Shown: positions 13,961 through 46,947 of the stretch, piece after piece
Numbering within the stretch: position 1 is the first letter of the stretch
Layout: the number at the start of each line of letters is the position of its first letter
Assembly (NCBI GenBank): GCA_965218425.1
Contig: OZ244621.1
Coordinates: forward strand, 2,279,369-2,343,368
Direction: 5' to 3'
Length of the DNA: 64,000 nt
From: an uncultured Candidatus Binatia bacterium
GTDB taxonomy: Bacteria > Desulfobacterota > Binatia > UBA9968 > CAXXLF01
Made by a program: the position numbers and the translations under genes
Notes under the pieces: model-generated
Told to the model about the DNA's origin: nothing
Seen by the model: only the letters and a program-made list of their open reading frames with translations
Database searches by the model: none

Positions 13961-14086
13961 AAAAAAAGTAAAAGGGTAAAAGTCCGTCCGGCGCCCTTAT
14001 GTTACCTGATGAGCGGACCCCGGGCACGGCAAATTCGTAAGATCGGAACGCCCGCCGCCGGGCTTAAGTTTGGGGTGGATTAATAT

Positions 14087-27743: not shown

Positions 27744-27745
27744 GA

Positions 27746-28743: not shown

Positions 28744-30804
28744 TTATCTCCTGTTACTCTCGGCAGGACGGTTAGACGTTTCGGCTGCCATAATCTTCTG
28801 TAGCAACCCCTCGGTTTCCTTCTCCACTGCCAGAATATCCGCCCGGATCTCTTCCAGCGTGCGCAGCGGCTGCGGCTTGTAGAAGTAGCGGGTGAAGCTG
28901 ATCTCGTAGCCGGTCTTGACGCTCGCCGGGTCGTACCAGGCGTCAGGGGCATAGGGCAGCACCTCGCGGCGAAGGAATGCTTCAATTCCGCCTTCCTCCA
29001 ACAGCGGCGCCTGCTCGGTGTCCCGCAGGTCGGTGTCCGGCTCGTACTCGACGACAGCCGGCTTGCCTTTGACGGTCGCCTCGAACAGGCCGCGCAGGGG
29101 GTCGGGCTCGACGCCCTTCCTGTGGATCTTCTTGATGACGGGCGGCGCGCTCTCGTCCCTCTCGGCGGTCTCCTTGAGCGCCTTGATCTCCTTCGGCGCG
29201 TAGACGCGGTCGGGGTCTATCCCCGTGAGCCGGAGGGGCCGCTCGACCGTCACCTTCCGATACCCGAAGGCGGCGTTCGGGAAGATCTTCGACTGCTCGG
29301 TCTCCTCGAAGGCCAGGAACGTGTCGCAGATGCGCTGGATGTCCTCGTCGGACAGCTCGCAGTTCTTCTTGCCGAGGTTCTTCCGGAGCGGCTTGTACCA
29401 GGGCGCGGCGTCGATGAGCTGGACCTTGCCTTGGCGATGGGCGGGTTTCCGGTTGGTCAGCACCCAGATGTAGGTGGCGATGCCGGTGTTGTAGAACATG
29501 TTGAGCGGCAGCGCGACGATCGCCTCCAGCCAGTCGTTTTCGATGATTCAGCGGCGGATGTTGCTCTCCCCCTGACCGGCGTCTCCGGTAAAGAGCGACG
29601 AGCCGTTGTGGACCTCGGCGATGCGGCTTCCCAGAGGGGCGCCGTGCTTCATCTTCGAGAGCATGTTCGCCAGGAACAGCATCTGACCGTCGCTGGAGCG
29701 GGTGATGAGCGAGTACTCGGCATCGCCGCCGTGTTCGATCAGAAAGCGCCGGTCCTTGATACCCTCCTTGCCGCCCAGGCGCTCCAGGTCGCTCTTCCAG
29801 CTCTTGCCGTAGGGCGGGTTGGAGAGCATGAAGTCGAACTCGCGGGACGGAAAGGCGTCGTTGGAGAGCGTCGAGTGTTCCGGCCCCCCGATGATGTTGT
29901 CGGCGGCTTCCCCCTCGCCCTTGAGGAGGAGGTCAGCCTTGGCGATGGCGTAGGTCTCGGCGTTGATCTCCTGGCCGTAGAGATGGGTGGCCGCCTGCTT
30001 GCCGCGCTGCCCGGCAATCTGCGTCAACGCCTCCTCGGCCACCGTCAACATGCCTCCGGTGCCGCAGGCGCCGTCGTATACCAGGTAGGTCCCGGAGTCG
30101 ATCCGGTCGGCGACAGGCAGGAGGACCAGCTTCGCCATGAGCTGCACGGCATCGCGGGGGGTCCAGTGCTCGCCGGCCTCCTCGTTGTTCTCCTCGTTGA
30201 AGCGGCGGACCAGCTCCTCGAAGACCGTGCCCATCGCGTGGTTATCGAGGCCGGGGTGTTTGATCGACCCGTCGCCGTGGAGGACCGGGTGCGGACTCAG
30301 GTTCACGTCCGGCGAAAGGAACTTCTCGATCAGCGTGCCGAGGGCGTCGGCCTTGGACAGGCGGGGGATCTGGTTCCGAAACTCGAACTTCTCCAGGATG
30401 TCCTGCACGTTCGGCGAGAAGCCGTCGAGATACGCCTCGAAGTCGGCCTTGAGCTGCTGTTGGCCGGCGCGGGCCTTGAGGTCGGGCAGCGTGAACTTCG
30501 ATGTGTTGTGGAACGCCTGGCCGGCGGCCTGACGCAGTGCCTGGTCCTGGTGGATGATCTTCGCCTGGTCGAGCGAGGCCTTCATCTCCAGCACGGCCGG
30601 CTTGCTCGGCTCCAGGAGGGAGTCGAGCCGCCGCAGCACGGTCATGGGCAAGATCACATCCCGATACTTGCCGCGGACGTAGAGGTCTCGCAGCACGTCA
30701 TCCGCGATGCCCCAGATGAAGTTGGCGATCCAGCCGAGTTGAGATTGGTCCACGGGAATCCTGGAAAGGCTCTGCCGGGATGTCCTTTTCGGCCGCCCCG
30801 GCAC
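28744..30804 (-). pseudogene. hsdM: type I R-M N6-adenine DNA methyltransferase HsdM with in-frame TGA at a conserved Trp position
   Basis: ORF 29548..30804 contains the HsdM N-domain and catalytic NPPYG, and stops at TGA (29548-29550) in ...FTGDAGQGESNIRR-TGA-IIENDWLEAIVALP... The frame then continues into ORF 28744..29499 (MFYNTGIATYIWVLTNRK...). Confidence 0.75.
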
Positions 30805-31386
30805 GTATTATTTAAGGTAACCGATCCACGGCCGCGATACAATGTATTGTATTGGGCCGCCACATCTTGCACTCTTCGGGTCTTCGCGTGCTCAATGAGA
30901 TGAGCCAACCCCCCGGGTGCAATGTCTTCGCAATAAGCTTCCCTGAAGGCTGTGGTCGGGACAATCGCTGACTTGTTCAGCGCCTCGATACCGTAGCAGC
31001 GTCCCCTCCGGTCACTACCGCTTTTTTGGTGTAGTTCGATCAATCGAAATGAACGAAACACGTTATCTACTGCACAAGACGTGACCCAGTGTTGCGCTCG
31101 GCGACGTCGTAGGCTCAGAATGAGGCGCCGCCCACCCCGATTTAACGGCCCTGAAAGGGCCGTTTTTCGACCCCTAAATGCCCCGGAAAATCCGGCCGGT
31201 TTCCGGCCCATTTCCAATTATTTCCGTCCGCCTACGCTCAATCGGTCAATCCCCCGGCGTGCTCTTCTACGTTTCATGATGCGATAGTAGGCGCCAGGGC
31301 ACTCGATCCGCAGTGGACGTGACATGCGTGGGACTCACTACGGCCAAGTTATCGCTATTCGTCCACCGATTATCACCCGGTCTCAC

Positions 31387-32178
31387 TTACTTGACAGTAT
31401 CGAACCCGGCCATGTCCTTCGCCCGCGAGGGCTCGATCCGTTCGACTCCGTCGTCATCGACGGTGAAAAAAGACCTCTCCTCGTACATGCAGCCGGACGG
31501 GCAGTCGCCCCAAGCCCTACGGAAGATGACATGCCAGGTCCCGCGCGACTTCGTTGCTTCGATATCGGAACCATCTCCAAGCAGCACATCGGGCTCCGCG
31601 TAGCTGACGCACTCCATCGCCTGGTAAGCCCTCCTCGCTGCGTCGATGTTCAGCGGTTCGTCGAAGTACATGGCGACCACACCGGTGGAGAAGAACGGCC
31701 GCACGGCCCACAGACCTAGTTTTGCATTGAGGGCATCGAACTCCGCGCGTGCGGTGCGGAGCGGGACGGAACCGCGTTCATCGTCAAGGAGACCGGACAC
31801 GGCTTCCAACAGCTTCGGCTCCAGACCGAGAAGAAGCGTCCCGAGCTTATGATCCTCCCGTGCGGAGATCTCCGCCATCGCCGGATACGCGTCTCGGATC
31901 CGCGCCAGAACCCGCCCGATCTCGCGGCCGAGCTCGCGTCGCCGACTTGCGTCCAACAACAAGTCATCGCTTTCTCTTCGCAGGATGCGATCGGCCAGAA
32001 CGGCAGCTTCCGTGGAGGCCGACGGTTGCCAGGGGTCCGCGCGGGCGAAGATCCGGACTTCGGCCTCTGCCGATGCTTCCGGGGGCGATGCGCCGCAGCC
32101 TGCCAGGGCCAGGGCGCAGCACGCCGCAAACCCGAAGCAAATCCACTCGGTCGGCCCTTTCAGACGTGACAGATCCAT
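31387..32178 (-). CDS. hypothetical lipoprotein
   Basis: Signal peptide plus lipobox (…CCALALAGCGAS…); no family recognised. Confidence 0.4.
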   Translation of the reverse strand: MDLSRLKGPTEWICFGFAACCALALAGCGASPPEASAEAEVRIFARADPWQPSASTEAAVLADRILRRESDDLLLDASRRRELGREIGRVLARIRDAYPAMAEISAREDHKLGTLLLGLEPKLLEAVSGLLDDERGSVPLRTARAEFDALNAKLGLWAVRPFFSTGVVAMYFDEPLNIDAARRAYQAMECVSYAEPDVLLGDGSDIEATKSRGTWHVIFRRAWGDCPSGCMYEERSFFTVDDDGVERIEPSRAKDMAGFDTVK

Positions 32179-32969
32179 CTCGAACGAAACACTCCTTAGC
32201 CGGCTGCCGACAATAAAGTATTTTAATTTATATAGCAACGGCATGTTCCCAGGACGCAAAGGCAAGTGGTCGGCTATTTCGATAATGCTGAGATGACACT
32301 AAATGACGAGCCGGATTCAAATTGAACTCACAGGCGTGAAGTATATTGAGCGGCTCGACCTGAAAATCGTCGAACAGAATCTGCCGATAGCTATCAACAA
32401 TTAGATCGCCCCGCCTTGGTTCACGCGAAGGGAACGGAATGACCGGGCATATTTCGTCTGGCCGCAGTTTTTCGCGGATCAAGGACAAGCGTTCGGCCAG
32501 TCTTGAACAGCTTTGTACCGCTATATTGTCTCCAGATAATAACGTTCCGTAACGGCTATATAAAGCTTTTAATCATGTGGAGGTATCCGGAGTGCAGGAT
32601 TACCCGTCTTCAGTTGTCCGGCAAAATAACCGACTGAAGCCTAACATTCGTTGCTACCTGTAGAGGTCAACACAGGTATTCGAACAGAAAACAAAATGAA
32701 ATTGGCATTGAAGTCAGGTATGATTTTTCGTATTTCGAACCTGCCACAAAATAGAAAGCCGCACGAAAATTGGTTAGCCCCGCCGATGGAATCGGTATGG
32801 GGCATAACCCGCCCGGTACTGAGGACCGAGGTGCACGTTCGGTTCCCGGCTCAACTCCGCCGCCCGCTCCAGGTCCCCCGCCTGGTGCGCTTCCTTCCGT
32901 CGATCCACGGGCTTTCGCCGGGCGCCGTCGCTGCCTTGCTCCGATCGACCGGCCCGCAGGGTCACAGAC

Positions 32970-33821
32970 CTACTCCACCGCTGCGATCCATTCCTTCTTC
33001 CAGGCCCCGACGCTCTTCCCTGTGACCCTCAAGATGCTTCCCCCGGTATCGCTGGCGGAATAGATCCGCATGATTTTCGAAACGCCTGTGTTCTTTAGGA
33101 GATAGCCGACGTAGGAGCCGGCAAAGATGTAGAACATCCGGCGCACGCGCCGATCATGAAATCCCGGAACGCCGTTTTTACCGATGAGATCCAAGGCTTC
33201 CAACGCCGTGTGTCGCCCCTCACGCAGCAGGTCTCGCGTCAATTCGTCAATCGGCGTGCCGAAATTCGGGAACGCCGGAAAGCCATCCAAGCGGTCGTTC
33301 AGATGCGCCGCCAGCCCCTCCTTCAGCCACAGTGCGTGCCAATCCCAACCGATAATATGAACCGTCTCGTGAAGAAAGGGCGTCCGCTGTTGCTTGGCGA
33401 AAGAGAGGAAGATGATGGGATGTAGGTATTTTCGGGGCTGGTAGCCGGTTATCGTGTGCGAAGGCTTGCGTCGGCTATGGACGAAATATTCGATCCTCTT
33501 CTGCTTATAGATATTGCTTGGAAACTTGACCCCCAAGAACGCTTCAACTTCGGCAATCCCCTTGTCGATCCGGCGATGCAGCTGTCGCGAAACGTCCTTG
33601 GAGAGGTAATCCGCTTCCACCCAGACAATGGAACGTTCGGAGACAAGCTTTTGCCCGCTCTCTTTGATGGACTCGATCATGCGGATGTCGCGGCACTTCC
33701 CTGCGATTGGCCCGTGCAGGCATTCTGCGGCCTGTCCTCTCCCCGCCTGAGTGGCTATGAGAGCGCAGCCTATGACCAACGCCGAGCGCCGAATGGGCCA
33801 TGTTTTCCATACGCCCCGCAT
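32970..33821 (-). CDS. hypothetical secreted protein with HExxH motif (possible metallopeptidase-like)
   Basis: N-terminal signal-like segment; FLHETVHIIGWDWH contains HExxH; otherwise no recognisable family. Confidence 0.35.
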   Translation of the reverse strand: MRGVWKTWPIRRSALVIGCALIATQAGRGQAAECLHGPIAGKCRDIRMIESIKESGQKLVSERSIVWVEADYLSKDVSRQLHRRIDKGIAEVEAFLGVKFPSNIYKQKRIEYFVHSRRKPSHTITGYQPRKYLHPIIFLSFAKQQRTPFLHETVHIIGWDWHALWLKEGLAAHLNDRLDGFPAFPNFGTPIDELTRDLLREGRHTALEALDLIGKNGVPGFHDRRVRRMFYIFAGSYVGYLLKNTGVSKIMRIYSASDTGGSILRVTGKSVGAWKKEWIAAVE

Positions 33822-34412
33822 GATCGTCCTTTTTTAAAATTAACCCGATTCCGCTCTTCCAGTCAACATAGCCCCTGGTAGTGGTTCAGTCTGAGCCGTC
33901 GGAAAAGAGTTTTCCCGTTGACCGTCATACTTGCTGGGGTAATATTCAATGCATGCCAACCAAAGGACCGGGTAAGAAGCGAGACTTCACACAGATCGCC
34001 AAAGCCATCATCGACAAGGTGACCGGCAACACCCCACCAGAGAAACCGGATACCAGAAACCCGCACTCTGTCGCGCTGAGCAGGCTATGCGCGAGCAAAA
34101 GAGGGTAAGCGCGGGCCAAAAGCCTTTCAGCGAAGCGACGAAGGGAAATAGCTCAAAATGCAGTACTGGTGGCGAGCAGCAGGCAGAATATCATATTTGG
34201 AAAGGCGTTAAAGATTCCCCCTTGTCCCCGGAGAGGGATGCCGCTTGCTTACAGCCGGTAAGTGCTTGTTGACCCGACAATCAAAAAACCGCCGCTATCG
34301 AGGCCACGGAATCCGTTGGGTCAAATGTCGATCAACGTCCGATCGCCCTCCGGCATAGCGGCATTGAGCGGCAACTGGAGTCAGTTGCCGCCGTCTGCCG
34401 TTATTCTTGACC

Positions 34413-35975
34413 CTATTTATCCAGCCAGAGGTAATTGAGCCCGCCGCCATGGTAGCGGAAGTGACCCCCACTATCCGTATTGAAGCCCTTGACGTAGTCC
34501 CGGAACATAAAAAAGCGGGGTGTAAAGCCGATGGGTATATCCGGTATGTCTTCGGTCACTTTGGCGACAATTTTTTGAAAGAGTTCCTTCCGCTTCTCGG
34601 GATCGGACTCGACCTCGGCCTGTTTAATGAATGAGTCCATCTCCTTGTCGCAGTAACCGGCTGAATTTGCGGCCCGTTTCTTCAGATCGTGTTCGCATAT
34701 GAACTCAGGCCCATACGTAGGGTAAGGATCGGGATCGAATGAACCCCCGGAAAACCTCAAGGCGAAATCGCCTGAGCGTTGGCTTGCGACATAGGCACTG
34801 TAGTCCATGACCTGAAGGACGACCTTCAAGCCGATCTTTTTAAGCTGGGCCTGAAGCGTTGCCCCTTCGGTTTCCATGTCTTCGCCCTGCCGCCCCGTGA
34901 TCGCGATCGGCTCTCCCTTATAGCCGGATTCCTTCAGGAGGGCTTTGGCCTTTTTGAGATCCAGCTTCGGCGTAGGTATCCCCTTGAAATGCCAGACATG
35001 CCCCTTGGGATATAGTTGGTTGGTAGTTTCTCCAAACCCAAAATAGGCTGCCTCTAGAATTTCCTTTTTGTTGATGGCATGGGCTACGGCCTGGCGCAGC
35101 TTCTTGTTGTTGAAGGGCGCGCCTGCGACGTTAAAGTTGAGGTGGCGATAACCGGCATGAGGGGCTTGCACATGGCGGATCCCTTTGATCTTGCCATTGA
35201 GGACCTGCTTCACCCACTCGTAGGGAGCCCGCTCGATGATGTCCACGTCTCCCGCGCGCAATGCCGTGAAGCGCACGGTGGAATTCCGGATGGGCCTGAT
35301 TACGAGCTTGTCGATGAAGGCCTTGTGCCCCCAATAGCCGTCATAGCGTTCGAGGACGATTCGCTGCCTGGCCCGCCACTCAACGAACTTGAACGGCCCG
35401 GTCCCCGGGGGAAACGAGCTGGGCTTGGAAATACCCGCTTGCACGGATTCTTTGGGGATGACGGAAAAGGCGCGGATGTCCGAAAGCAGCGAAAGAAACG
35501 CCGGGCTGGCTTTTTTCAGGGAAATCTTCAGCGTATGTTTATCTACGGCTTCCGCCCGCTCAACCAGGGTGAGCCGGACAAAACCGTAGGCTCCATTCTT
35601 GGGATTCTTCGTGTAGTCGATGGCGAACTTCGCGTCTTCTGCCGTCACCTCCCGGCCGTTGTGGAATTTGACTCCTTTGCGCAGCCGGAACGTATATTGC
35701 CTGCCGTCCTTGGAGATCTCCCACGACTCGGCGAGGTTCGGGCGAATTTTTCCCTCTAGATCAATGGTCAAGAGCGACTCGAACATGAGGTCACGGAGGG
35801 ATTTATCGGTGGATGAAGTTCTGACCAGAGGGTTCATCATGGTCAGATCCTTACGGGTTGAAAAGGTTAAAGTGCCGCCCCGCTTGGGTTGGCCTTGCGC
35901 GTTACCGGCCGGCGCCGCAAGGGCCAATAAGAAGGATGATAAAACTAGGCCTGCAATAATATTCCATTGCTTCAT
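34413..35975 (-). CDS. ABC transporter substrate-binding protein, family 5 (peptide/nickel type)
   Basis: 520 aa, signal peptide, SBP_bac_5-like sequence throughout. Confidence 0.8.
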   Translation of the reverse strand: MKQWNIIAGLVLSSFLLALAAPAGNAQGQPKRGGTLTFSTRKDLTMMNPLVRTSSTDKSLRDLMFESLLTIDLEGKIRPNLAESWEISKDGRQYTFRLRKGVKFHNGREVTAEDAKFAIDYTKNPKNGAYGFVRLTLVERAEAVDKHTLKISLKKASPAFLSLLSDIRAFSVIPKESVQAGISKPSSFPPGTGPFKFVEWRARQRIVLERYDGYWGHKAFIDKLVIRPIRNSTVRFTALRAGDVDIIERAPYEWVKQVLNGKIKGIRHVQAPHAGYRHLNFNVAGAPFNNKKLRQAVAHAINKKEILEAAYFGFGETTNQLYPKGHVWHFKGIPTPKLDLKKAKALLKESGYKGEPIAITGRQGEDMETEGATLQAQLKKIGLKVVLQVMDYSAYVASQRSGDFALRFSGGSFDPDPYPTYGPEFICEHDLKKRAANSAGYCDKEMDSFIKQAEVESDPEKRKELFQKIVAKVTEDIPDIPIGFTPRFFMFRDYVKGFNTDSGGHFRYHGGGLNYLWLDK

Positions 35976-36014
35976 GGTAAAGCCCTCCTTTTGAAGCGAT
36001 TGATTACCATTAGG

Positions 36015-36245
36015 TCATGGCCATGTCAATATCTCGCCCGCCGGCCGGTCTTGCCGTCGGGGAGATGGATCGCGGCGTCGAACCGGGCGGCGGCATCGGC
36101 GTGGTCGATTTCGTCGATCGGCCTCCTGCCGAAGGCGGGGAGGATGCGGGCCTTGAGATAGATGCGCGCGGTCTTGCGCCCGGAGGGTTTCCAATTGGGG
36201 TCGGGGCGGCGCAGATATTGCTCGGCGAACGCCTTGAAAGATTGA
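36015..36245 (-). pseudogene. remnant of a P4-type tyrosine integrase (N-terminal SAM-like domain fragment only)
   Basis: Minus-strand frame without start codon: ...RPWLFQSFKAFAEQYLRRPDPNWKPSGRKTARIYLKARILPAFGRRPIDEIDHADAAARFDAA... matches the integrase N-terminal domain; catalytic domain absent. Confidence 0.5.
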
Positions 36246-36320
36246 AACAGCCAAGGTCTTGTTGTACCGATCTTTCAGTTCCTGTAGCGTCGGCCTTAAC
36301 GGGCCGGTGAGGATTGAAAT

Positions 36321-36959
36321 ATGATCAAGGCTGCATTCCTGACCTGTTTGACGGTCGTGCACGCGATCCTGTTGGCAAGCGCCGCCGGGGCCCGGTCGAT
36401 GGAAGCGGCGCACGCCGCATTCGCCGAAGGCCGATTTGTCAAGGCCGCCGAGATCGGCCAAGCCCTCAAGACATCCGACGGATATGCGCTGGCGGCCAAG
36501 TCGCTGGCGATACACGGCTACTTAATCGCAAAAGAGGAAGAGAAGCAGGCTTTGTTCGACCGCGCCATGCTGTTGGCGGAAGAGGCGGTCCGGCTCGACG
36601 CGGCCAATCCGGAGGCCCATCTCCAGTCGGCCCATGCCATGGGCCGATACGCGCAGACAATCGGCATGTTGCAAGCAGTCAGTGGAGGATATGCGACGAA
36701 GGTGCGCGAGGCCGTCGGAGAGGCGCTACGGCTGGACCCGAAAATGGCGGCCGCTCATTTGGGCCTGGCCACGTGGCACGCGGAACTCGTCAACGGCGCG
36801 GGTTTAATGTCCGGTTTTCTTTATGGGGCTACCGAAAAGCAAGCTCATGCACACTACGAGCGGACCCTTGAGCTTGCGCCCGATGAAAAGGTGGCGTTTG
36901 TCGAATACGCGTTCGGCCTTTTGCTGATGGGCGACCATAAACCGCGAGCAGGCGCGTGA
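36321..36959 (+). CDS. hypothetical exported protein (TPR-like helical)
   Basis: N-terminal signal peptide (MIKAAFLTCLTVVHAILLASAAGA); no family assigned. Confidence 0.4.
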   Translation: MIKAAFLTCLTVVHAILLASAAGARSMEAAHAAFAEGRFVKAAEIGQALKTSDGYALAAKSLAIHGYLIAKEEEKQALFDRAMLLAEEAVRLDAANPEAHLQSAHAMGRYAQTIGMLQAVSGGYATKVREAVGEALRLDPKMAAAHLGLATWHAELVNGAGLMSGFLYGATEKQAHAHYERTLELAPDEKVAFVEYAFGLLLMGDHKPRAGA

Positions 36960-37570
36960 TTTGCTCATGAGCGCGATCAAGATGCCGTCCAAGGACGCTT
37001 TCGACCGTCTCATTCACCAAAAGGCGGTGGAGCGACTGGCGTCCCTCGACGGCAGGTAGTCAAGTCGAAGAAGTTCGAAGTCTGAAGTTTGAAAATAGGG
37101 CAAAGGCTTTTCTTCTCCCTATAATCCGCACCGCGACGCTTACGGGATAACCTCAAAGCTCATTTGCCGGAGGTGATGGTCCAACGTCAATGCCCGGCAA
37201 ATTCGCAATTCTCGCATGAGAACAAAGCCGCGGCAGTTGGTAAAGGGGAACTCCTTGTCCCGGTAGCGGAAGAAGGGCGACCGTGCCAATTCTCTTCGTG
37301 CTTCGTCAATGGACTCGATCCGCAGTCGCGCCGCGCCGTCGATTTGCGGCTACCAAGCTTCAGCGGCATCAAGACCAAGGCGGAACCGGATGGTGGTTAA
37401 CGTCTCGTCGATCACATAGTCGGTGGTCGCTAGCGCGCCTCCCTCCGATAACCGTTGACCCCGAGCTTGCCGTATGGCCGAGTTCGCGGCATCGGTGCGG
37501 TCGGTGGCGGCAATCTACTTTTGAGGACCAAGGTCTGAATGCCAGACCTATTCATCGGATATTTCACGTC

Positions 37571-38044
37571 TCAAATAGTGACACAAGGAACCGATTCCCG
37601 GTCAACCGGACGTTCAGCTTCAGCCAAGTTTCGAAGCGGCGTTGCCAAGGAGACTTCTCGCCTCCTCGAAGGATGTAATGCGAAGAGGACCGAGCACGCC
37701 GGCGTCTCGGCGGCCTCCGTTTGGCAGAAGAAAAACCGCCGGCTATCGAACTCCTCCGGGTCCGTCCAGTGCTCCAACAGTCGCTTGGTAATTCCCGTAA
37801 CGCCCGGATACCCGGCTTCGCGCCATGCCCGCACGCACGGCCGAATCCGGTTGACCAGAGGGATCTCGATGAAATGGCCCGGGTCATCGAATGATCGGGA
37901 GCCCTCCGAGGCAATGACGTATCCGGCCGGGCGACGACCTTCTGCAAGATCGAACAGATGCGTCGTCCGATCGTAACTCCAGTGCCGGGCCGGCTCCTCG
38001 TAGGGTGAGTTGACGATCAGCTGGTCAATAGTTGTTCGCGCCAT
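37571..38044 (-). pseudogene. N-terminal fragment of a type III restriction Res-subunit / DEAD-box helicase family protein
   Basis: MARTTIDQLIVNSPYEEPARHWSYDRTTHLFDLAEGRRPAGYVIASEGSRSFDDPGHFIEIPLVNRIRPCVRAWREAGYPGVTGITKRLLEHWTDPEE...RRFFFCQTEAAET matches the characteristic N-terminus of res-like helicases; ORF only 157 aa. Confidence 0.55.
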
Positions 38045-38046
38045 TA

Positions 38047-38463
38047 TCAGCCCTGTGAAGGAATGTCAGGCTCAGGCGGCACGAGTGGTTCGAGCAGGGC
38101 GATCAACCTTGGCAGGTCTTCCCGCACCGTTTGCCACACAATATCAAGGTTTATGCTGAAATACGCATGCCGACGATTTCCTCCCACGGAATGGCTGACA
38201 ACTGTCCGCGAGTGGTTTCGATTATCTGTAGTGGGGTCGGGTAGAGGGCCTAAGGTCCAGGGGCACGTTCCGGCTGAGTAGATCCGTGACCGCATGACCG
38301 TGTCGTCCAAAGTGAGCCTTCGCGTCAGCCGCACACGATCTTGCGGGCCTTCCAGCGTTTTCCGGTTCAGCAGCCGTTTCTGATACACCACCTGATTCTG
38401 TTCATCGATCAGTCCCACGACACTGTTGTTAGAGTGCAAGTCGATGACACCGTACAATTGCAT
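38047..38463 (-). mobile_element. IS110-family (DEDD) transposase N-terminal fragment
   Basis: MQLYGVIDLHSNNSVVGLIDEQNQVVYQKRLLN... matches IS110-family transposase N-termini; the rest of the ORF is out of family, so it is truncated or frameshifted. Confidence 0.45.
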
Positions 38464-38640
38464 AAGCTCCCTCCTTGAGTTGTAATGTTGGTTATCAAAC
38501 CAACTTACCGCCTCTTGGTGGAGCCTTCTAAATGATTATCAAATCTTTTGCTGACAAATTAGTGGTCCAGCTTGCAGCTGAAAACCGATGGCCCGTCATT
38601 TAGATTTGATGCCGGCGGTCAAGTAGATAAGGGGTTTTTC

Positions 38641-38925
38641 ACCTTTAGTTAAGGATGTCTTTGAAAATATGCGGGGGAGCTACTCCGGAACCGGAGGTGA
38701 ACCAGAGCATAGGTCCGAACTGTTGGATGGCCAGGTTCCCGCTGAAGTAGAGCCCCGGGATACTTGACTGGAAATGTTCGTCCAGGAGGGGGAATCCTCC
38801 GGATACCTTCAGGTGAATAAGAATAGTTTCATAATCTAGAAAAAAGAGGTTGGATACCGCAGGCCGAAAACCCGTGCCTAGGATGATATGGTCCGCCTCC
38901 AGCGGCTGCGGAGTTAAGGCTCGCC
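38641..38925 (-). pseudogene. C-terminal remnant of an FAD-dependent pyridine-nucleotide oxidoreductase
   Basis: Minus-strand frame ...PQPLEADHIILGTGFRPAVSNLFFLDYETILIHLKVSGGFPLLDEHFQSSIPGLYFSGNLAIQQFGPMLWFTSGSGVAPPHIFKDILN*. Its upstream part overlaps the amidohydrolase 3' end in another frame. Confidence 0.35.
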
Positions 38926-40038
38926 GTAAAAACGCACGGCGTTGTCGTACAGGAATTTTCCCTTCTGTGCCTTCGTGAGGTCGGTTCGGTTCACCAGCTC
39001 CGTCGCCGCGTTCTCCCTTGCCTCGCCGTGCGGAAAGTCTGAAGCGAAAAGCACGTGGTTTTCACCCATGAGCTCGATCTCACCGGGCAAGAGCGGGTCC
39101 TCGGCCTCCGGGGCCACGAACAACTTTCCCGATTTGAGATAGTGTCCGATATCTCTCTGCGGCAGTGTCTTTATCGCCGCGTCTGTCCGGTAGGTTGGAA
39201 GATAGTGGCCAATACGCCCCGCCATGTAAAATAGCCACTCGGCTCCAAATTCCAAGAAGGCTACCTTTAAGTCGGGATACTTGTCGAGCATGCCATGTCC
39301 CACCACCGCCACAAAAGCAAGTACCGCGGGGAGGGACATTCCGATGGCATGGGCATCGAGTCTGCTCTGGCAGAGGCGCTCGAAGGGAGGGAAGCTCATT
39401 CCCATGTGGACGCAGAGCGGAAGCCCGCTATGGGCCAATTCATCCCAGACAGGACCGAAGGTGGAATCAGACAACATGCACTCCCCCGCTGTTCCGTATA
39501 CAACCGCGGCGCTTGCCCCCATTCCCAGCATCTCTTGGAGAGCCTCGCACCCTTGTCGGGAATCACGCAGAGGCAGGAGGCCGGCCCACTTGAGCCGCTT
39601 TGAGAAGTGGGTACACTGGCGTCCGACGTAGCGGTTATAGGCTCGAAACAGGACCGCTTCGAAGGTTGGGTCCGACGTAGCATTGGCATACAGCGTCGTG
39701 GGAAATACAAATTGAACATCAATTCCTGCCCTGTCCAGTTCACGAATTCGAGACTCCGGGTTCGACAGGTCAAGACTTTCTACGACCTGCGGTGATGCGC
39801 CGAACTCCTCAAGGACATCCGTTGGCTTATTGGCGCCTTGAGTAGCCGGCCCAAATGGGTGAGGCTGCATTCGACCATCCATCAGCCACCCTGTGTTCCA
39901 TCTGCCCATACCGTCGTGGTCAGAGACTCTTACGGCACGAGGACGCCGCGCCGCGTACTCGGGAGGCAGGTCTTCCCACATCTTGGGACTCAAAATTACA
40001 TGCGCATCAGCATCGTAAATGCGATAGTCCTGAAACAT
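38914..40038 (-). CDS. amidohydrolase-2 family metal-dependent hydrolase
   Basis: 374 aa; ...MGENHVLFASDFPHGE... and overall TIM-barrel amidohydrolase pattern. Confidence 0.7.
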   Translation of the reverse strand: MFQDYRIYDADAHVILSPKMWEDLPPEYAARRPRAVRVSDHDGMGRWNTGWLMDGRMQPHPFGPATQGANKPTDVLEEFGASPQVVESLDLSNPESRIRELDRAGIDVQFVFPTTLYANATSDPTFEAVLFRAYNRYVGRQCTHFSKRLKWAGLLPLRDSRQGCEALQEMLGMGASAAVVYGTAGECMLSDSTFGPVWDELAHSGLPLCVHMGMSFPPFERLCQSRLDAHAIGMSLPAVLAFVAVVGHGMLDKYPDLKVAFLEFGAEWLFYMAGRIGHYLPTYRTDAAIKTLPQRDIGHYLKSGKLFVAPEAEDPLLPGEIELMGENHVLFASDFPHGEARENAATELVNRTDLTKAQKGKFLYDNAVRFYGEP

Positions 40039-40499
40039 ATTTACCGTCCCCCGTCAGCAAAATGATTTCCCAAACATTCTCTACATGAGTATGAACACTT
40101 GGCGCGCCCCATAAATGTTTCCGGTCAGTCCACGCCCCGTCCCTTTAGCAGAAAAGAGTGTCCGACATCAAGCTACTAGGTCAATTCCCTATATACGCTT
40201 CCTTAGCATTGTGTTTTTGATATCGAAATTATCGGTCTAACAGCCAAATTTGGTTGTGCTGCAATTTTCAGATTTAAAAACAGTCAATTGGCTTGGTCCA
40301 GCGCGGCGTGGAAGAAAGATTGTCAAGATATCCAGGCCCGACCCCTTGACCTTCCACTTCGATAGGCCATAAGGGTCTTTATTGTCCGACCTTGTCGGTT
40401 GGCTCCAAAATAATCCACCTTCAATAAATGGGTGCCGATCTTTAAAAGAGCCCGAGAGGTTCTTTAATTCCTTAGGAGTCGCTGGACTCCCGCGCACCT

Positions 40500-40742
40500 T
40501 TAGTTTGCCCTCTTTTTTTGCCGCTCGATCCGGGGCTTGGGCAATTGGAGCTCTTGGTCGATCCCGTCCAGAATGGAAGGGTCAAGCTTGAATCGTTCCA
40601 GCAGCTCCGGCGTTGATTTCGGTATTTGCGCGGTAAACCCATTTTGCGGGAGTATTAGCAAGAGGGCCAGGAAGCATAAAGAGCCCGTAAGTTTCTTGGA
40701 GTTTTTTACCATGGCCTTTCTCCTTTCGTGGAGCCCACGCAT
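40500..40742 (-). CDS. small secreted hypothetical protein
   Basis: Signal peptide MVKNSKKLTGSLCFLALLLILPQNGFTAQ; 80 aa. Confidence 0.3.
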   Translation of the reverse strand: MRGLHERRKAMVKNSKKLTGSLCFLALLLILPQNGFTAQIPKSTPELLERFKLDPSILDGIDQELQLPKPRIERQKKRAN

Positions 40743-41023
40743 AATAGTTCCACTTGGATTCTGTCGAGGCGCGTCCTCCCAGCGAACCGTATCTCAGTAT
40801 TTTATTGACAATTGACATGCATTCGAAGCTTTACTAGAGGTTACCTGAGGCAGGAACTCTCCAAACATTAGCGAAACTTTCGGTAGGATATGAGGCCAGC
40901 GAGGGCGGGGAGCGGCAAGGACCAATAATTTCCAAAGGTTTATTAGCCGGCCGGGATTGTAGGATTCCCTGATCCGAATTCTGTTAAAGGTTTTTAACGG
41001 GAGGCTCTTGAAGAGTTAAGAAA

Positions 41024-43339
41024 GTGAAAATGAATAACACAAGTTCTGTAACAGGTCAGGCAAGATCGGCAGACATCGCGCGGGCCCTCAAGGTTTCCGA
41101 GCAACGCCTCGATGGCCCGTTAAAGGTGAGTGGACAGGCGCGTTTCACAGCTGACGTATGCCTCCCGGGGATGTTGTGGGCCAAGTTTCTATTGAGCCCT
41201 GTAGCCCACGCGCGCGTCGTTTCTGTTGACGTATCAGCCGCCAAAGCGTTCCCGGATGTGCATGCTGTGCTGACGGGTGCTGATATTGGCCAAAGACGGT
41301 TCGGCCGCCAATATTATGATTGGCCAGTGCTGGCAACCGACCGAGTAAGGTTCATCGGTGATCGAGTGGCCGCAGTGGCGGCCACGAGCCCGGAGGTTGC
41401 TGAGGAAGCAGTGAATCTTATTAAATTCGAGTATGAAGAGCTTCCTTCTGTCTTTGATCCAGAAGCTGCTCTGGGCGATAACACACCCATCCTGCATCCT
41501 GACCGGTCAGAGTACTATTACCGGTCAGGTCAGTTTCCGGCAGTGCCCCACCCGAACCTGCAAGGGCATCGGCTGATACAGAAAGGTGATTTGGACATTG
41601 AGGGGGCTTTTGCCCGGGCTGACCGCGTCTTCGAGGACATCTACACGGCTCCACGTCAGCATCAGGGCTTTATCGAACCGCATACAGCCGTAGTCTGGAT
41701 TGAATCCGATGGAACGGTGCGCGTCGTGTCGACCAATAAATCTCCGTTCCTGTTAAGGCATCAATTGTCAGTGGTCACTGGAGTTGTTCCCGAGCGGATC
41801 ATGGTTGACAGCATGTATATCGGCGGTGACTTTGGTGGCAAGGGGCTCTCAATCGACGAGTTTGCCTGTTATTACCTAGCTCAGGCAACCAGCCTTCCCG
41901 TAAAATCGGTTATGTCATACACGGATGAACTACAAGCCTCGAACCCATTGCACTCCGCCAAATTCTATTTGCGTACAGGAGTAACCAAAGATGGCCACAT
42001 CATTGCGCACCAATCCCGCGTGTTCTTTAATGGCGGCGCCTATGCTGCGGGGAAACCAATTCCAGGCCTAACTCCTCCGTCTGGGTGGGGTGCCCTTGAG
42101 GTTTACAACGTGCCCAACGCCCGAATGGAGACCTTCCTCTGCTACACCAACACGGTCCCGGCTGGGCAAAGGCGGGCTACCGGCGCTGTGTTCTCCGCGC
42201 TGGCAGGCGAGGGGCATGTGGATCATATTGCGCGAGAATTGCAGATGGACCCGCTGAACTTCCGGCTCGCGAATGCGATTCGTGACGGCGACACGGGCCT
42301 CGCAGGGGAAGGTATAAGGAACCCAAGGGTTCTCGCTGTACTGGAAGCGATTCGAGGCAAAACAAAGTGGGGTAGGAAAGCCAAGCGACCAAACCATGGA
42401 CGTGGGATAGCGATACGTCGGAGCCATGTAGGCCAAGGCAAAACGGAGACTGCCTTTCACCTTCGCCCCGTAGGAAAAATTGAAACGGTCTACGGGACGC
42501 CGGATCAAGGTAGCGGTTCCCACACGGTGATCCAGCGAATCGCAGCCGCTGTGCTTTCAGTCAAACCCGAGCGAATTCTGGTAAAATATGAGACGACCGC
42601 AAAGGCACCTTACGATCCAGACGGCGCGGGTTCGAGCCGGGTGACCCATATTGCAGGGCAGAGCGCAATCTCGGGGGCGACAAAACTTAAGGAGAAGTTA
42701 GAGCATCTTGCCTCGGAGGTAATGGGCTGGCCTGCAGGCAAGGTCAGCCTCAAGCAGGACAGGTTTGTGGTCGGTCGTGGATCCTCGAATTGGGCGAGCT
42801 TTGAAGAGGTTACAGACCGCATTTTACTTCAAGGGCCAGTAGAGGTCCTCGGCTCGTATGATAGCAGCAGCCAACAACCGGAAGCTCGCGACTTTAATTT
42901 CTGCGCGTACATGATTGAGGTCCGAATAGATCCAGTCACTGGTCAAGTTCACCCCATCGAGGCGGTCATGGCTGTGGACGTTGGGACCATCATCAACCCA
43001 ATTGCCCACCAGGGTCAACTGGAAGGCAACTTTGTCTTCGGGCTGAGTAGCGCATTGATGGAAGAGTTACTTGTCGAGGATGGGAAAGTTACCAATCTAA
43101 GTCTGGGCGAGTATAAACTTCCGACAACAATGGACATACCTCCGTTACAAACTGTCTTAGTGCCCACTGACATCGGACCCGGCCCCTTCGGGGCTAAATC
43201 AGTGGGTGAGATCGCAAACAGCGCAGTTGTTCCTGCTATTGCCAATGCTGTGTACGACGCGGTCGGGTGCCGTGTCATGACCTTACCCATCACTGCGGAA
43301 AGAGTGTTCAAAGCCCTCAGAAAATCAGACAAGGCGTGA
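41024..43339 (+). CDS. xanthine dehydrogenase / aldehyde oxidase family molybdopterin-binding large subunit (CoxL/XdhA-like)
   Basis: 771 aa; a/b hammerhead and MoCo-binding domains recognisable. No FeS or FAD subunit genes adjacent. Confidence 0.8.
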   Translation: MKMNNTSSVTGQARSADIARALKVSEQRLDGPLKVSGQARFTADVCLPGMLWAKFLLSPVAHARVVSVDVSAAKAFPDVHAVLTGADIGQRRFGRQYYDWPVLATDRVRFIGDRVAAVAATSPEVAEEAVNLIKFEYEELPSVFDPEAALGDNTPILHPDRSEYYYRSGQFPAVPHPNLQGHRLIQKGDLDIEGAFARADRVFEDIYTAPRQHQGFIEPHTAVVWIESDGTVRVVSTNKSPFLLRHQLSVVTGVVPERIMVDSMYIGGDFGGKGLSIDEFACYYLAQATSLPVKSVMSYTDELQASNPLHSAKFYLRTGVTKDGHIIAHQSRVFFNGGAYAAGKPIPGLTPPSGWGALEVYNVPNARMETFLCYTNTVPAGQRRATGAVFSALAGEGHVDHIARELQMDPLNFRLANAIRDGDTGLAGEGIRNPRVLAVLEAIRGKTKWGRKAKRPNHGRGIAIRRSHVGQGKTETAFHLRPVGKIETVYGTPDQGSGSHTVIQRIAAAVLSVKPERILVKYETTAKAPYDPDGAGSSRVTHIAGQSAISGATKLKEKLEHLASEVMGWPAGKVSLKQDRFVVGRGSSNWASFEEVTDRILLQGPVEVLGSYDSSSQQPEARDFNFCAYMIEVRIDPVTGQVHPIEAVMAVDVGTIINPIAHQGQLEGNFVFGLSSALMEELLVEDGKVTNLSLGEYKLPTTMDIPPLQTVLVPTDIGPGPFGAKSVGEIANSAVVPAIANAVYDAVGCRVMTLPITAERVFKALRKSDKA

Positions 43340-43377
43340 ATCGCCTGACCTAGGGAACCCCTGGCGGTTTCTTGTTC

Positions 43378-44168
43378 TTATCGTAATAAATAGGTGGCGG
43401 TAAACTCGGGTTTGCGACGCTCGGTGAAGGCAGCGGACCCTTCATCATAGGCTTTGCTCTGGCGCAGGTGTGCGTAGTACTCACGATGCACTTTGAACCC
43501 TTCTTCCCAGCCCTGGATATCGTACAACAGTTTGTAGATGTACTCTTTGGTATGAGCGGCGATGAGTCTTCCGTTCCGATTGATGGTTGTGCATAGTTTC
43601 ATGCAGTCATCAACCAGCTTGTCGGGTTCACAGATCTTTTGCACCAACCCGAGTCGAAAGGCCGTCTCGGCGTCAACCATTTGGCCGGTGAAGGCAAACC
43701 AGAAGGCCCGGCCCGAGGTGAGGGTTGTCAAGTATGAAGGCCAAGCAGCCAGATGAGACCAACGGACCTCAGAGCAACCGAATTTCGCCTGTGGGACACA
43801 GTATCGAACGTCGCAGTTCAGGGCGAGACTGAAGCCGCCACCGACGGCAAAGCCGTTGATCGCGGCGATAACCGGCTTGTTCATCTCCAGGTCGCGCAGG
43901 TTCGAGTAATTCCGATTTCCAAAGCGTGGTTTTGAAACTCACCTCTTGCCGCGGCCAGGTTTTCTTTCAAGTCCCCACCCGCGCAAAAGGAATCCCCGGA
44001 GCCGGTTAAAATAATGGTCCAGACATCGTCGTCGTCCTTGGCCCTTTGCCACGCCTCGTCCAAAGCCCGGTGAAGGTCACTGCTGATGGAATTCTTTTTC
44101 TCTGGACGATTGAGCTGAATGATTGCCGTATGTGGCTCTCGTTTTTCGTAGATTAGAAGGTCTGCCAT
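43378..44168 (-). pseudogene. enoyl-CoA hydratase/isomerase (crotonase) family gene split by a frameshift
   Basis: ORF 43881..44168 gives the N-terminal part (…LNRPEKKNSISSDLHRALDEAW…ILTGSGDSFCAGGDLKE…). ORF 43378..43884 in another frame gives the remainder (MNKPVIAAINGFAVGGGFSLALNCDV…). Confidence 0.7.
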
Positions 44169-44245
44169 GGCCGCTCCCTTTTTCTGATACAGAAGACCAT
44201 CGGATTAAATGGATGCCTAATCTCAGGATCCAATGGTTCGATCGT

Positions 44246-44752
44246 CTATTCATGAATGTCGATGAACACGCAATCGAGGTCAGACAGGTGGGACTTCCCG
44301 TAGCGACAGGTTGCTAATAGCGCGAGTCTTGCCTCCCTATCCGGACCCAGCCCTACCGGCTTTGCGGCGCTGGACGGGTCGGACTTCTCTAGATTTTCTA
44401 AATCCTTTCTTACGGTATCGATGCTTTCGACTTTGAAACCTACATGGTCCAAACTGGGTTTCTCGATCCCTGTCCCTTTGAAATTCGTGATGTCCCAAGA
44501 ATTAATTACTAGAGTTACCCTCCCATCGGTCAGGTAATAATTAGAATCCTCCAGTGCTTTGTCCTCCTCTTCGAGTTCAAATATCTCCCGATAAAACCGT
44601 GCAATTTCTGGCGGATCTAGGACACGCAATACGAAGTGGTCTATAGGCGTGAATAAGGGGTCAAGTTGACCCCTTTGCCTCCAACGAAAACACCGTTGAA
44701 ACTCCGATTTTTCAAGCCGGAAATCTCCTGAGGATTTCCAGGGCATTCGCAA
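44246..44752 (-). CDS. VOC (glyoxalase/bleomycin-resistance/dioxygenase) family protein
   Basis: …IDHFVLRVLDPPEIARFYREIFELEE…DHVGFKVESIDTVRKDLE… VOC fold pattern. Confidence 0.55.
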   Translation of the reverse strand: MRMPWKSSGDFRLEKSEFQRCFRWRQRGQLDPLFTPIDHFVLRVLDPPEIARFYREIFELEEEDKALEDSNYYLTDGRVTLVINSWDITNFKGTGIEKPSLDHVGFKVESIDTVRKDLENLEKSDPSSAAKPVGLGPDREARLALLATCRYGKSHLSDLDCVFIDIHE

Positions 44753-44953
44753 TGAATTCTGTCCGCTAACAAAAGCCGTTATGTCAGGCGGGCGAGCCCC
44801 GGGTAAGTACCGGGTGAGAAACCGTGCGCAATGCGCGTCGGAGACGGTACGGATAGCCTCAGGAACCGTGGCGGTTCCGGCTGTCCCGGCGAGCGGACGC
44901 GCATCTTCCCGCCTGAGACCTCGATCCCGCCGAGGGGTGGATGCCGGTCAAGG

Positions 44954-45856
44954 TCAGCGGCGTCGAATGCGCGGATCCAGGGCGTCGCGCAGGCCGTCGC
45001 CCATGTAGTTCACGCTCAATACGGTCAGCGAGATTGCAAGACCCGGCCAGATCGCGCGGGCCGGAGTGATGTTGAGGAAAGGCACACCGTCGTAAAGCAA
45101 CCGACCCCAGGTCGGGAAATCGGACGGGAATCCGAGACCGAGAAAACTCAGTGCGCTTTCCGTAATGATCGCTTGCGCGATGCCGAGCGTGGCCGCAACC
45201 ATGATCGGGCTCAACGCATTGGGGAAGACATGCCGCAGGATGACCCGGTGCGGCCGCGCGCCGAGGCCGCGGGCGGCGAGGACAAACTCCCGCTGTTTGA
45301 TCCCGAGCACCTCTCCGCGAACGATACGCGCGGTCTGCATCCAGCTTGTGATGCCGATGACGACTACGATCAGGATGAATATTCCGACCTCCGATCCCAG
45401 GGTGGATCGCAGCGGGTCCCGGAATAACATGATGCTGACGAGCAGCAACGGCAGAACCGGCAACGCCAGGAAGAGATCGGTCAGCCGCATCAGCAAACCG
45501 TCGAGTCTCCGTAAGAAGCCTGCCATGACGCCGATGAAGGCTCCGAGGGTCAATGACAGAACCATTGCGGTGACTCCCACGGCAAGCGAAATCCGCCCGC
45601 CTGCCAGCACCCGGGCGAACATGTCGCGGCCGAGATTGTCCGTGCCCATCGGGTGAGCGAACGACATGCCCTGGTTCTTGGCCTTGTAGTCGAGAAATTG
45701 CGGGTCGATGCCGTGGACGGCGGATCCGAACAGGACCGCCGACGCGATCAGCGAAAATGCCGCGGCGCCGACCAGCGCACCCTTATGTTTCAGGAACTGA
45801 TGCCAGACATATTGCGTTGGCGAGCGGTATCGCTCGGAATGAACCGGTTCAGTCAT
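44954..45856 (-). CDS. ABC transporter permease (DppC/OppC-like)
   Basis: 300 aa, six TM segments, binding-protein-dependent transport signature. Confidence 0.8.
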   Translation of the reverse strand: MTEPVHSERYRSPTQYVWHQFLKHKGALVGAAAFSLIASAVLFGSAVHGIDPQFLDYKAKNQGMSFAHPMGTDNLGRDMFARVLAGGRISLAVGVTAMVLSLTLGAFIGVMAGFLRRLDGLLMRLTDLFLALPVLPLLLVSIMLFRDPLRSTLGSEVGIFILIVVVIGITSWMQTARIVRGEVLGIKQREFVLAARGLGARPHRVILRHVFPNALSPIMVAATLGIAQAIITESALSFLGLGFPSDFPTWGRLLYDGVPFLNITPARAIWPGLAISLTVLSVNYMGDGLRDALDPRIRRR

Positions 45857-46868: not shown

Positions 46869-46947
46869 GGCTCGTGCGCTTGACGGATCACGGGAAGCGT
46901 GCGGGCTGGGGGTGCCGCGGGCCTTCCAAAATCAGCTCCACGTCACG

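Follow-up and report, generated by a model that had tools for sequence, protein, structure and literature searches.

In an uncultured, Binatia-like soil bacterium, two ordinary metabolic genes flank a 2.9-kb interval (positions 35976-38913 of a 64,000-nucleotide stretch of DNA, here called the window) that carries pieces of mobile-element, toxin and restriction genes. Does it encode a working system, the margin of an integrated island, or only what is left of several unrelated genes? The original prediction described degraded mobile or foreign DNA with four fragments (integrase, Res, IS110 transposase and flavoprotein), none of full length. All four were recovered on the minus strand, match intact relatives far above chance and are truncated against them. 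In total seven gene remnants were counted, these four together with a HepT, a VapC/PIN and a TPR remnant, and no gene in the interval is demonstrably intact. Its features, with the evidence for each, are as follows:

36035-36241, minus strand: P4-type tyrosine integrase remnant (Pfam, tblastn and DNA alignment)
36321-37059, plus strand: gene for a secreted TPR protein (RMD1-3/TPR-like; Pfam after frame repair, and homologues)
37140-37514, minus strand: VapC/PIN toxin remnant, aa 12-131 of ~135 (tblastn with protein P0040)
37515-37702: 188 nt without assignment, between the Res and VapC remnants
37703-38044, minus strand: remnant of a type III restriction Res subunit (BPTD_3080 family), aa 1-115 of ~940-970 (NCBIfam and tblastn)
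38047-38228, minus strand: HepT (DUF86) toxin remnant, aa 54-119 of 119 (Pfam, tblastn and DNA alignment)
38229-38364: 136 nt without assignment, linking the IS110 stub to the HepT stub
38365-38547, minus strand: IS110-family remnant, an 84-nt left end with ribosome-binding site (RBS) and transposase codons 1-33 (DNA alignment and tblastn)
38548-38647: 100 nt without assignment, between the flavoprotein stop codon and the IS110 left end
38648-38914, minus strand: C-terminus of a Pyr_redox_2/K_oxygenase-type flavoprotein, 88 codons and stop (tblastn, DNA alignment and Pfam)

DNA without assignment amounts to four stretches of 100-190 nt and a few shorter gaps. Comparison with intact homologues resolved the breakpoints to the single nucleotide, and the pieces proved to be truncated or mutated mobile-element, toxin-antitoxin or restriction genes, in keeping with the degraded foreign DNA that had been proposed. 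Most of the lesions are cleanly joined deletions, the smallest 19 nt and the largest more than 2 kb long; two of them (in hepT and int) are flanked by short direct repeats. A GC profile gave values of 0.44 to 0.69 for the individual pieces, compared with 0.571 for the window. Judged from these comparisons, the interval very likely represents a non-functional mosaic of gene remnants that were gained at different times and then eroded.

Such a patchwork could in principle be produced by chimeric joins or indel errors in a low-coverage long-read contig. The contig name indicates 8x coverage, and single-base lesions are present (the TPR frameshift, a TAG in vapC and a TGA in the nearby hsdM). However, two further assemblies contain the sequence without indels, one from a different sample at 12x coverage and the other a Logan assembly of a third run. 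Across the three independent metagenome assemblies the patch is essentially identical, with at most one mismatch (identities of 99.995% over 20.6 kb, 99.994% over 17.7 kb and 99.9% over 1.1 kb). Clean-junction deletions of the sizes seen here are also not the kind of damage that base-calling errors cause. Because the three assemblies agree, an artefact is extremely improbable, and the sampled population is fixed for the patch.

Decay is general in the region, as shown by neighbouring pseudogenes: hsdM, interrupted in frame by a TGA at a Trp position, and a frameshifted enoyl-CoA hydratase gene. Recoding of stop codons at Trp positions (TGA in hsdM, TAG in vapC) was considered and dropped, as two different stops are involved and TAA, TAG and TGA each terminate confident genes. 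The standard code therefore applies.

At the left end of the patch, an integrase SAM-like domain lacking both start and catalytic domain had been placed at 36015-36245; this was borne out, with homology covering 36035-36241. The remnant scored above the cut-off of two Pfam profiles, Phage_int_SAM_3 (PF14659; 29.9 bits, cut-off 22.6) and Phage_int_M (PF22022; 29.7 bits, cut-off 27), showing that the SAM-like/central core-binding domain is retained. When four intact P4-type enzymes (P0044, P0045, P0049 and P0052) were used as tblastn queries, aa 98-154 of these 384-403 aa proteins matched 36241 to 36071 (E 3e-23) and aa 255-267 matched 36073 to 36035. The two segments are joined in frame by a 299-nt deletion between GGCGA-like short repeats, and in DNA alignment to locus L060 positions 36070-36233 correspond to 10463-10300 and positions 36034-36073 to 10802-10763. 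Upstream of the equivalent of aa 98 there were no tblastn matches in any frame, and the arm-binding domain (PF13356) is absent. Thirteen residues (aa 255-267) are left of the catalytic domain (PF00589, R-H-R-Y), the remainder being deleted. The reading frame terminates at 36026-36028, 50 nt ahead of the start codon of the flanking SBP gene (34413-35975). In loci L060-L063 the intact relatives neighbour other integrases and IS elements.

The second mobile piece, an IS110 DEDD-transposase N-terminus, was likewise confirmed. Only codons 1-33 of the transposase survive (38463 to 38365 by tblastn; 91% identical to PF01548 proteins), preceded by an 84-nt left end (38547 to 38464). Over positions 447-628 of L065, a locus from another metagenome, the DNA is 91% identical and the match ends sharply at both sides; a further copy in L028 is 73% identical, and the L065 and L028 copies share a common left boundary. 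Deletion has removed everything beyond that, at least 1.1 kb of the element. A search of the window for the IS110 3' end found none, and the DEDD transposase (PF01548 and PF02371) is incomplete. The 100 nt on the flavoprotein side (38548-38647) gave zero matches across the DNA searches.

The flavoprotein stub corresponds to aa 298-385 of a ~392-aa protein (38914 to 38651) and is 78-86% identical to P0036 and P0037 at the amino-acid level (tblastn, E 2e-40 to 3e-47). At the DNA level it is 89.6% identical to L064 over 38899 to 38649. It matches positions 225-285 of the 291-position Pfam profile PF07992, below the cut-off, and the N-terminal FAD and NAD(P) dinucleotide-binding regions are absent. 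An oxidoreductase C-terminus overlapping the amidohydrolase gene had been proposed: the C-terminus is real, but homology begins at the final base of the amidohydrolase stop codon. What looked like overlap is run-on of the open reading frame through amidohydrolase sequence in a different frame.

The TPR gene had not been noticed in the original prediction. Its annotated ORF (36321-36959, 212 aa) stops short of its homology, which is picked up by the +1 frame at 36928 and lasts until 37056. A frameshift near 36940, most simply one extra C, costs ~35 C-terminal residues. After repair of the frame the Pfam TPR_CcmH_CycH score rose from 14.7 to 25.7 bits with the match reaching aa 225, and homologues on Deinococcus plasmids align to repaired residues 75-245 and 98-243.

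A VapC/PIN remnant, also overlooked at first, is 54% identical to P0040 (PF01850; tblastn, E 6e-38). P0040 itself matches Mycobacterium tuberculosis VapC20 at E 4e-15, and the remnant does so at E 9e-4. The remnant contains an in-frame TAG at 37350-37352 where homologues have a Trp codon, lacks in-frame aa 1-11 including the N-terminal acidic residue, and has a conserved (catalytic) Asp replaced by Asn (FTNC, compared with FTDC/FVDA in homologues). An uninterrupted PIN domain with its conserved acidic residues is thus not present. The adjoining 188 nt (37515-37702) may hold an out-of-frame VapC start, MNRSGIQTLVLKS, with an ATG at 37555. In the same stretch, upstream of the PIN remnant, no VapB antitoxin was recognisable by Pfam or by comparison with the closest PIN locus, antitoxins being short and diverse; that locus, L058, is likewise without a visible antitoxin and its upstream region is dissimilar to 37515-37702.

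The 157-aa ORF read as a Res/helicase N-terminus was confirmed in part of its length. Homology is limited to aa 1-115 (38044 to 37703), and the final 42 aa are run-on, to 37571. Against NCBIfam NF046055 (BPTD_3080 family restriction endonuclease) the remnant matched profile positions 2-120 of 970 with 114 bits (E 5.5e-33), where the family cut-off is 800 bits. No full-length NF046055 match was found, and the helicase and endonuclease regions are absent. Searching the window by tblastn with P0197 and P0190 (943 and 694 aa) recovered aa 3-115 only, and no further Res pieces were found there. Within 35.9-40 kb there is no mod methyltransferase gene adjoining res; its neighbours are the HepT and VapC remnants.

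HepT is the third remnant absent from the original prediction. It scores 26.2 bits against Pfam PF01934 and is spread over two frames in tblastn. DNA alignment to the intact MNT-HepT locus L021, in which homology begins at 38226, revealed a 19-nt deletion between 7-nt GCATGCG repeats (junction 38167/38166). This deletion shifts the frame and removes the codons between GMR and HAY, breaking the RX4HXY motif. The N-terminal half (aa 1-53) is absent. Upstream of hepT, where L021 has the MNT (NTP_transf_2) antitoxin gene, that gene is missing and the IS110 stub is found instead. The adjacency of HepT and res recurs in L021, an unrelated locus in which res is cut to ~40 nt, and L059, from another lineage, carries a res stub of 221 aa. 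On its other side the HepT stub is joined in frame to the IS110 stub through 38229-38364, whose translations have no Pfam hit and whose DNA has no match; the result is a chimeric 138-aa ORF (38047-38463).

Public annotations call both the 157-aa and the 138-aa ORF as genes, and both have start codons. Could such remnants have been domesticated as small genes, the first as a translationally coupled 115-aa Res module and the second as an IS110-HepT chimera? Both ORFs start with ATG, the 138-aa ORF has a good RBS (AAGGAGGG), and the ATG of the 157-aa ORF lies 2 nt past the stop codon of the 138-aa ORF. N-terminal-only Res ORFs also exist on Mb-sized contigs of other lineages. Against this, the HepT catalytic motif of the 138-aa ORF is wrecked by the 19-nt deletion, the tails of both ORFs are without homologues, and the hits to short proteins reflect fragmentary contigs and a ranking biased towards proteins of query length. 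An index-free search at equal similarity returned full-length relatives of the Res remnant of 900-1200 aa. In view of this result, and with hits tracking query length, a genuine family of small Res-like proteins was also dropped as a candidate. Domestication of either ORF is therefore highly unlikely. The bolder proposal that the Res stub is kept as a stand-alone small protein, for instance a modulator or decoy derived from the type III restriction enzyme, with recurrence of short ORFs reflecting repeated domestication and not decay, we regard as extremely doubtful.

PADLOC made zero defence-system calls inside the patch, a scan for promoters and terminators gave signal no higher than in shuffled controls, and plasmid blastn returned a sole match, 68% to Res in Planktothrix.

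The original prediction had further placed the patch at the eroded edge of an integrated element or island. This is plausible in so far as a strain-variable defence island (17.6-30.8 kb; type I R-M, IetAS and an IS3 element) ends ~5 kb to its left. Two assemblies differ from each other in this island (in IetAS and type I R-M, left of 29229), whose left border is sharp and follows immediately after ubiD at 17.5 kb. If the patch were the margin of that single island, the P4-type integrase would be its recombinase, the type I R-M and IetAS genes its cargo, and the integrase remnant at 36.0-36.2 kb would fit as the right-hand end. However, the flanking signals that had been suggested as a check did not appear: the 64 kb hold no tRNA or tmRNA gene (nor any Rfam hit), and direct repeats in 32-42 kb are at chance level, with no att-like repeat flanking the patch. 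Apparently ordinary genes (the SBP gene and two unknown ORFs) separate the defence genes from the integrase, the toxin-antitoxin, Res and IS110 remnants lie on its far side, and the patch is invariant across the available assemblies. A single island is accordingly unlikely. The wide range of GC among the pieces, and the fact that their closest relatives differ, speak for multiple insertions and deletions that were independent of one another; the pieces probably arrived by several events rather than as a single element.

Any number and order assigned to these events would be conjectural, because neither an ancestral empty site nor an intact version of the locus was found. The nearest genome has an amidohydrolase 91% identical but no synteny; in a scan of genome contigs with the amidohydrolase, the nearest Binatia MAGs shared only a 1.2-kb block (38908-40114). 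As only this gene is shared, the empty site cannot be reconstructed. Scanning metagenome contigs with the SBP protein yielded paralogues of at most 65% identity in tandem SBP arrays, again without synteny.

A history can nevertheless be proposed. The original gene set would have included a type III restriction module whose res gene was immediately preceded by an MNT-HepT pair. Other sources would have been an IS110 element, a P4-type integrase and a gene for a VapC toxin, with the flavoprotein and TPR protein genes as two passengers. Their arrival would have been spread over time, at a chromosomal site where gene turnover is high. They would subsequently have been reduced by deletions, frameshifts and a nonsense mutation, in an order that we infer only provisionally. 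Loss of the partners (mod, the MNT antitoxin and the VapB antitoxin) may have promoted, or simply allowed, the inactivation of res and of the toxins. The most that the remnants might do at present is provide spacer or promoter DNA to the SBP and TPR genes beside them.

The mobile and defence leftovers at this locus are an ordinary by-product of gene gain and loss and constitute no new system. For annotation, the public calls of 157 and 138 aa represent debris of pseudogenes, to be left out of any count of proteins, defence systems or toxin-antitoxin systems. The locus offers a clean worked example of restriction and toxin genes disabled, presumably after loss of their protective partners, and it marks 17.6-38.9 kb as a high-turnover spot in this lineage, with no new mechanism implied.

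The mobile-element, restriction and toxin remnants each resemble a known system in the part that survives. The SAM-like/central domain is 64-77% identical to that of 384-403 aa P4-type tyrosine integrases (Arm-DNA-bind_3, SAM-like and Phage_integrase), whereas here the arm-binding and catalytic domains are deleted and no tRNA gene is adjacent. The left end and first 33 codons share 91% DNA identity with the L065 copy of an IS110 insertion sequence (PF01548 and PF02371), but most of the DEDD domain, the Transposase_20 domain and the 3' non-coding end are gone. In the type III Res subunits of the BPTD_3080 family (NF046055), members are 70-83% identical to the N-terminal 115 aa; in contrast to them, the remnant has lost ~88% of the protein, including helicase motifs and nuclease, and has no mod gene. 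Compared with MNT-HepT (DUF86, PF01934) type VII toxin-antitoxin systems, the C-terminal half matches intact HepT and the junction to res is as in L021, but MNT and the N-terminal half are missing and the RX4HXY region carries the 19-nt deletion. VapC (PIN) toxins such as M. tuberculosis VapC20 (PDB 5WZF) share fold-wide sequence similarity over aa 12-131; they differ from the remnant in its premature TAG, lost N-terminus, Asp to Asn exchange and lack of a detectable antitoxin.

The overall picture fits a published model (Belot et al. 2026, PMC13617665) in which toxin-antitoxin genes are acquired and then erode in spots of high turnover. It differs from the eroded toxin-antitoxin and defence genes described there in that the Binatia-like genome is known from metagenomes only and, with no syntenic relatives retrieved, the steps of gain and loss are not placed on a phylogeny. 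As in that model and in the defence-island concept, toxins have been pseudogenised through nonsense mutation, deletions and antitoxin loss, and they cluster with integrase and transposase remnants near variable defence genes.

The patch at 35976-38913 is very probably a gene graveyard, left after selfish and defence modules had settled in a permissive spot and later been inactivated and trimmed. It was translated stop to stop in six frames and the pieces were mapped with intact homologues from protein databases. This confirmed the four gene fragments of the original prediction but raised the total of damaged genes to seven, every piece being supported by E values of 1e-15 to 1e-47 against intact proteins or by 78-91% DNA identity with sharp boundaries.

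Pieces of the patch and flanking genes
38914-40038, minus strand: Amidohydro_2 protein (Pfam E 2e-15)
38914 to 38651, minus strand: flavoprotein remnant, Pyr_redox_2 / K_oxygenase type, 88 codons corresponding to aa 298-385 of 392-aa flavoproteins
38547 to 38365, minus strand: IS110-family remnant, an 84-nt left end, which carries the ribosome-binding site AAGGAGGG, followed by codons 1-33 of the transposase
38228 to 38050, minus strand: HepT (DUF86) toxin remnant, aa 54-119 of 119 aa (Pfam 26.2 bits; tblastn)
38044 to 37703, minus strand: type III restriction Res subunit remnant, aa 1-115 (NCBIfam NF046055, BPTD_3080 family, E 5.5e-33)
37514 to 37143, minus strand: VapC/PIN toxin remnant, aa 12-131 of a PIN toxin (54% identity to the intact PIN protein P0040, E 6e-38)
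36321-36959, plus strand: secreted TPR protein gene, 212 aa, frameshifted
36241 to 36035, minus strand: remnant of a P4-type integrase in which aa 98-154, the SAM-like/central domain (Pfam scores exceed the cut-off), continue in frame into aa 255-267
34413-35975, minus strand: SBP_bac_5 solute-binding protein (Pfam E 5e-95)

The same mapping recognised no gene piece in 38548-38647, 38229-38364, 37515-37702 and 36242-36320, nor in the 80-nt convergent spacer (37060-37139) or the 50 nt between the end of the integrase reading frame and the solute-binding protein start codon.

The window sequence is found in the ENA metagenome assembly ERZ25072670 (1.5-Mb contig ctg256646_8x_l). Positions 29229-46959 recur with 99.99% identity and zero indels in ERZ25067264 (12x), a second assembly made from a different sample, and 36293-37394 was found again with one mismatch in the Logan assembly of run ERR13605531. 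Because these further assemblies carry the same sequence, the patch structure is not an accident of assembly; with three concordant assemblies contradicting it, an artefact is very unlikely.

The flavoprotein remnant is 78-86% identical to intact 392-aa proteins (best E 3e-47), and its DNA is 89.6% identical to a retrieved comparison locus (L064). Its first base is the final base of the amidohydrolase stop codon. The amidohydrolase has 91% protein identity to its counterpart in an uncultured Candidatus Binatia MAG, and DNA homology to that MAG ends at 38911. An overlap of the oxidoreductase ORF with the amidohydrolase 3' end had been proposed; the overlapping part is the amidohydrolase gene read out of frame, so there is no real coding overlap. 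The sole block common with the nearest Binatia genomes is 38908-40114 (87% DNA identity), comprising the amidohydrolase gene and 76 nt upstream, which suggests that the gene itself moved, by relocation or transfer, as a single 1.2-kb unit. Its context is wholly different in the sister species (a NicX-like gene, the amidohydrolase, then BCCT transporter fragments), and therefore allows no ancestral state to be inferred. The BCCT fragments there (L066-L072, about 11600-14200) encode 58-145 aa, and IS insertions (rve, Transposase_mut) vary among strains.

The IS110 remnant is 91% and 73% identical to the copies in comparison loci L065 and L028, respectively. Since these two copies have one left boundary, 38547 is a true IS terminus; nothing of the remaining element (at least 1.1 kb) is present. 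The 136 nt from 38364 to 38229 join the stub in frame to the HepT piece, creating a chimeric 138-aa ORF to which public gene calls give a weak HepT match. The IS110 relative (L065 453-1767, L028 1-1320) has conserved non-coding DNA of ~80 nt at its 5' end and at least 220 nt at its 3' end. Some IS110/IS1111 elements encode a guide (bridge) RNA, for which the 3' region would, judging by its length, offer enough room.

Compared by alignment with L021, an intact MNT-HepT locus, the HepT remnant lacks 19 nt between two GCATGCG repeats (GGCATGCG[CAATCGCCTCGTGCATGCG]TATTTC), a loss that causes a frameshift and takes out some of the RX4HXY region. The patch has neither the MNT gene nor the N-terminal half of HepT. 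The alignment continues past the HepT stop into the first ~40 nt of res, indicating that HepT directly upstream of res is an older arrangement, decayed in L021 too. In L021, on an unrelated contig, the MNT-HepT pair is intact and the ~40 nt after its HepT stop (10358-10400) resemble the res start with the ATG lost, so that the HepT-res junction is common to both and res decayed independently in L021.

Of the 970 profile positions, the Res remnant matches just 2-120, and its score of 114 bits lies below the cut-off of 800. Its relatives in an index-free search are full-length proteins of 900-1200 aa; short Res-like proteins in a first homology search reflected the length bias of that tool. A tblastn search with two full-length relatives found no further Res piece in the window, and the 157-aa ORF ends in 42 residues for which there is no homologue. 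That this stub or the chimeric ORF is a domesticated gene is highly improbable.

P0040 matches the Mycobacterium tuberculosis toxin VapC20 with E 4e-15, and the VapC/PIN remnant matches it directly with E 9e-4. In the remnant a TAG (37350-37352) stands where homologues have Trp, the first 11 residues, including the first catalytic Asp, are lost in frame, and Asn replaces the conserved Asp in the FTDC motif. No antitoxin was recognisable upstream. The 212-aa TPR ORF is the sole whole-looking one in the patch, yet it is damaged: between 36928 and 37056 the homology goes on in the +1 frame, frame repair raises the TPR_CcmH_CycH Pfam score from 14.7 to 25.7 bits, and Deinococcus plasmid proteins align with the repaired residues as far as 243-245. 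Most simply, one extra C near 36940 causes a frameshift that removes the last ~35 residues. The integrase fusion reflects a 299-nt deletion with a GGCGA-like repeat common to both ends; the arm-binding domain and nearly the entire catalytic domain are absent.

Degraded foreign or mobile DNA, as originally predicted, stands. Its assignment to the eroded edge of one integrated island is plausible but less likely: the usual landmarks are missing, with no tRNA or tmRNA gene in the 64-kb window and no direct or inverted repeat of note near the patch. Such an edge would also leave unexplained why toxin-antitoxin, Res and IS pieces lie past the integrase, and why the composition is so heterogeneous, with a GC of 0.571 for the window but of 0.44 (IS110) to 0.69 (integrase) for the pieces.

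Left of the patch, a defence island follows immediately on ubiD (16043-17527).

Features of the surroundings
17637-20633: hsdR
21190-21996: second hsdS fragment, with small DUF433 and Macro-domain ORFs
about 22960-24130: IS3-family transposase (HTH_Tnp_1 ORF and rve ORF), inserted at, or overlapping with, the hsdS 3' end
23937-25154: hsdS
25971-28741: IetS protease and IetA ATPase (PADLOC E 6e-222 and 2e-146), between hsdM and hsdS of the type I R-M system
29548-29550, minus strand: in-frame TGA in hsdM where Trp is conserved (NIRR*IIENDWLEAIVALP)
43378-44168, minus strand, right of the patch: enoyl-CoA hydratase gene, frameshifted into 95-aa and 168-aa pieces

The IetS/IetA defence pair is apparently intact. 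In both assemblies the TGA leaves hsdM as two ORFs, one of 401/418 aa and one of 251 aa. In the second assembly (L002/L057) a GmrSD_N fragment, HsdS and HsdR replace IetAS, and from 29229 on the sequence again matches the window. This variation and the damaged hsdM and enoyl-CoA hydratase genes indicate that decay and turnover are general in the neighbourhood. The window has no Rfam family. A glycine-reductase-like cluster (about 7277-9960) contains GRDB and Gly_reductase, plus a GRDA ORF that is just 68 aa long; the short call might be a selenocysteine TGA effect, and no SECIS element or other Rfam match was reported.

For the graveyard reading, several selfish or defence modules would have entered a permissive chromosomal spot and then been inactivated and trimmed by deletions, a stop codon and a frameshift. 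Alignment to intact homologues mapped the breakpoints: two junctions, the 19-nt HepT and 299-nt integrase losses, are deletions between short direct repeats, and the other lesions include a conserved Trp position turned into a stop codon, and a single-base frameshift. A res gene without mod, or a toxin gene without its antitoxin, is harmful, so inactivation is expected after partner loss. In practice the patch serves as a warning for annotation and neatly illustrates microhomology-associated gene erosion. The phenomenon itself is familiar; the same stepwise gain and erosion of toxin-antitoxin loci in high-turnover spots is described for Photorhabdus (PMC13617665).
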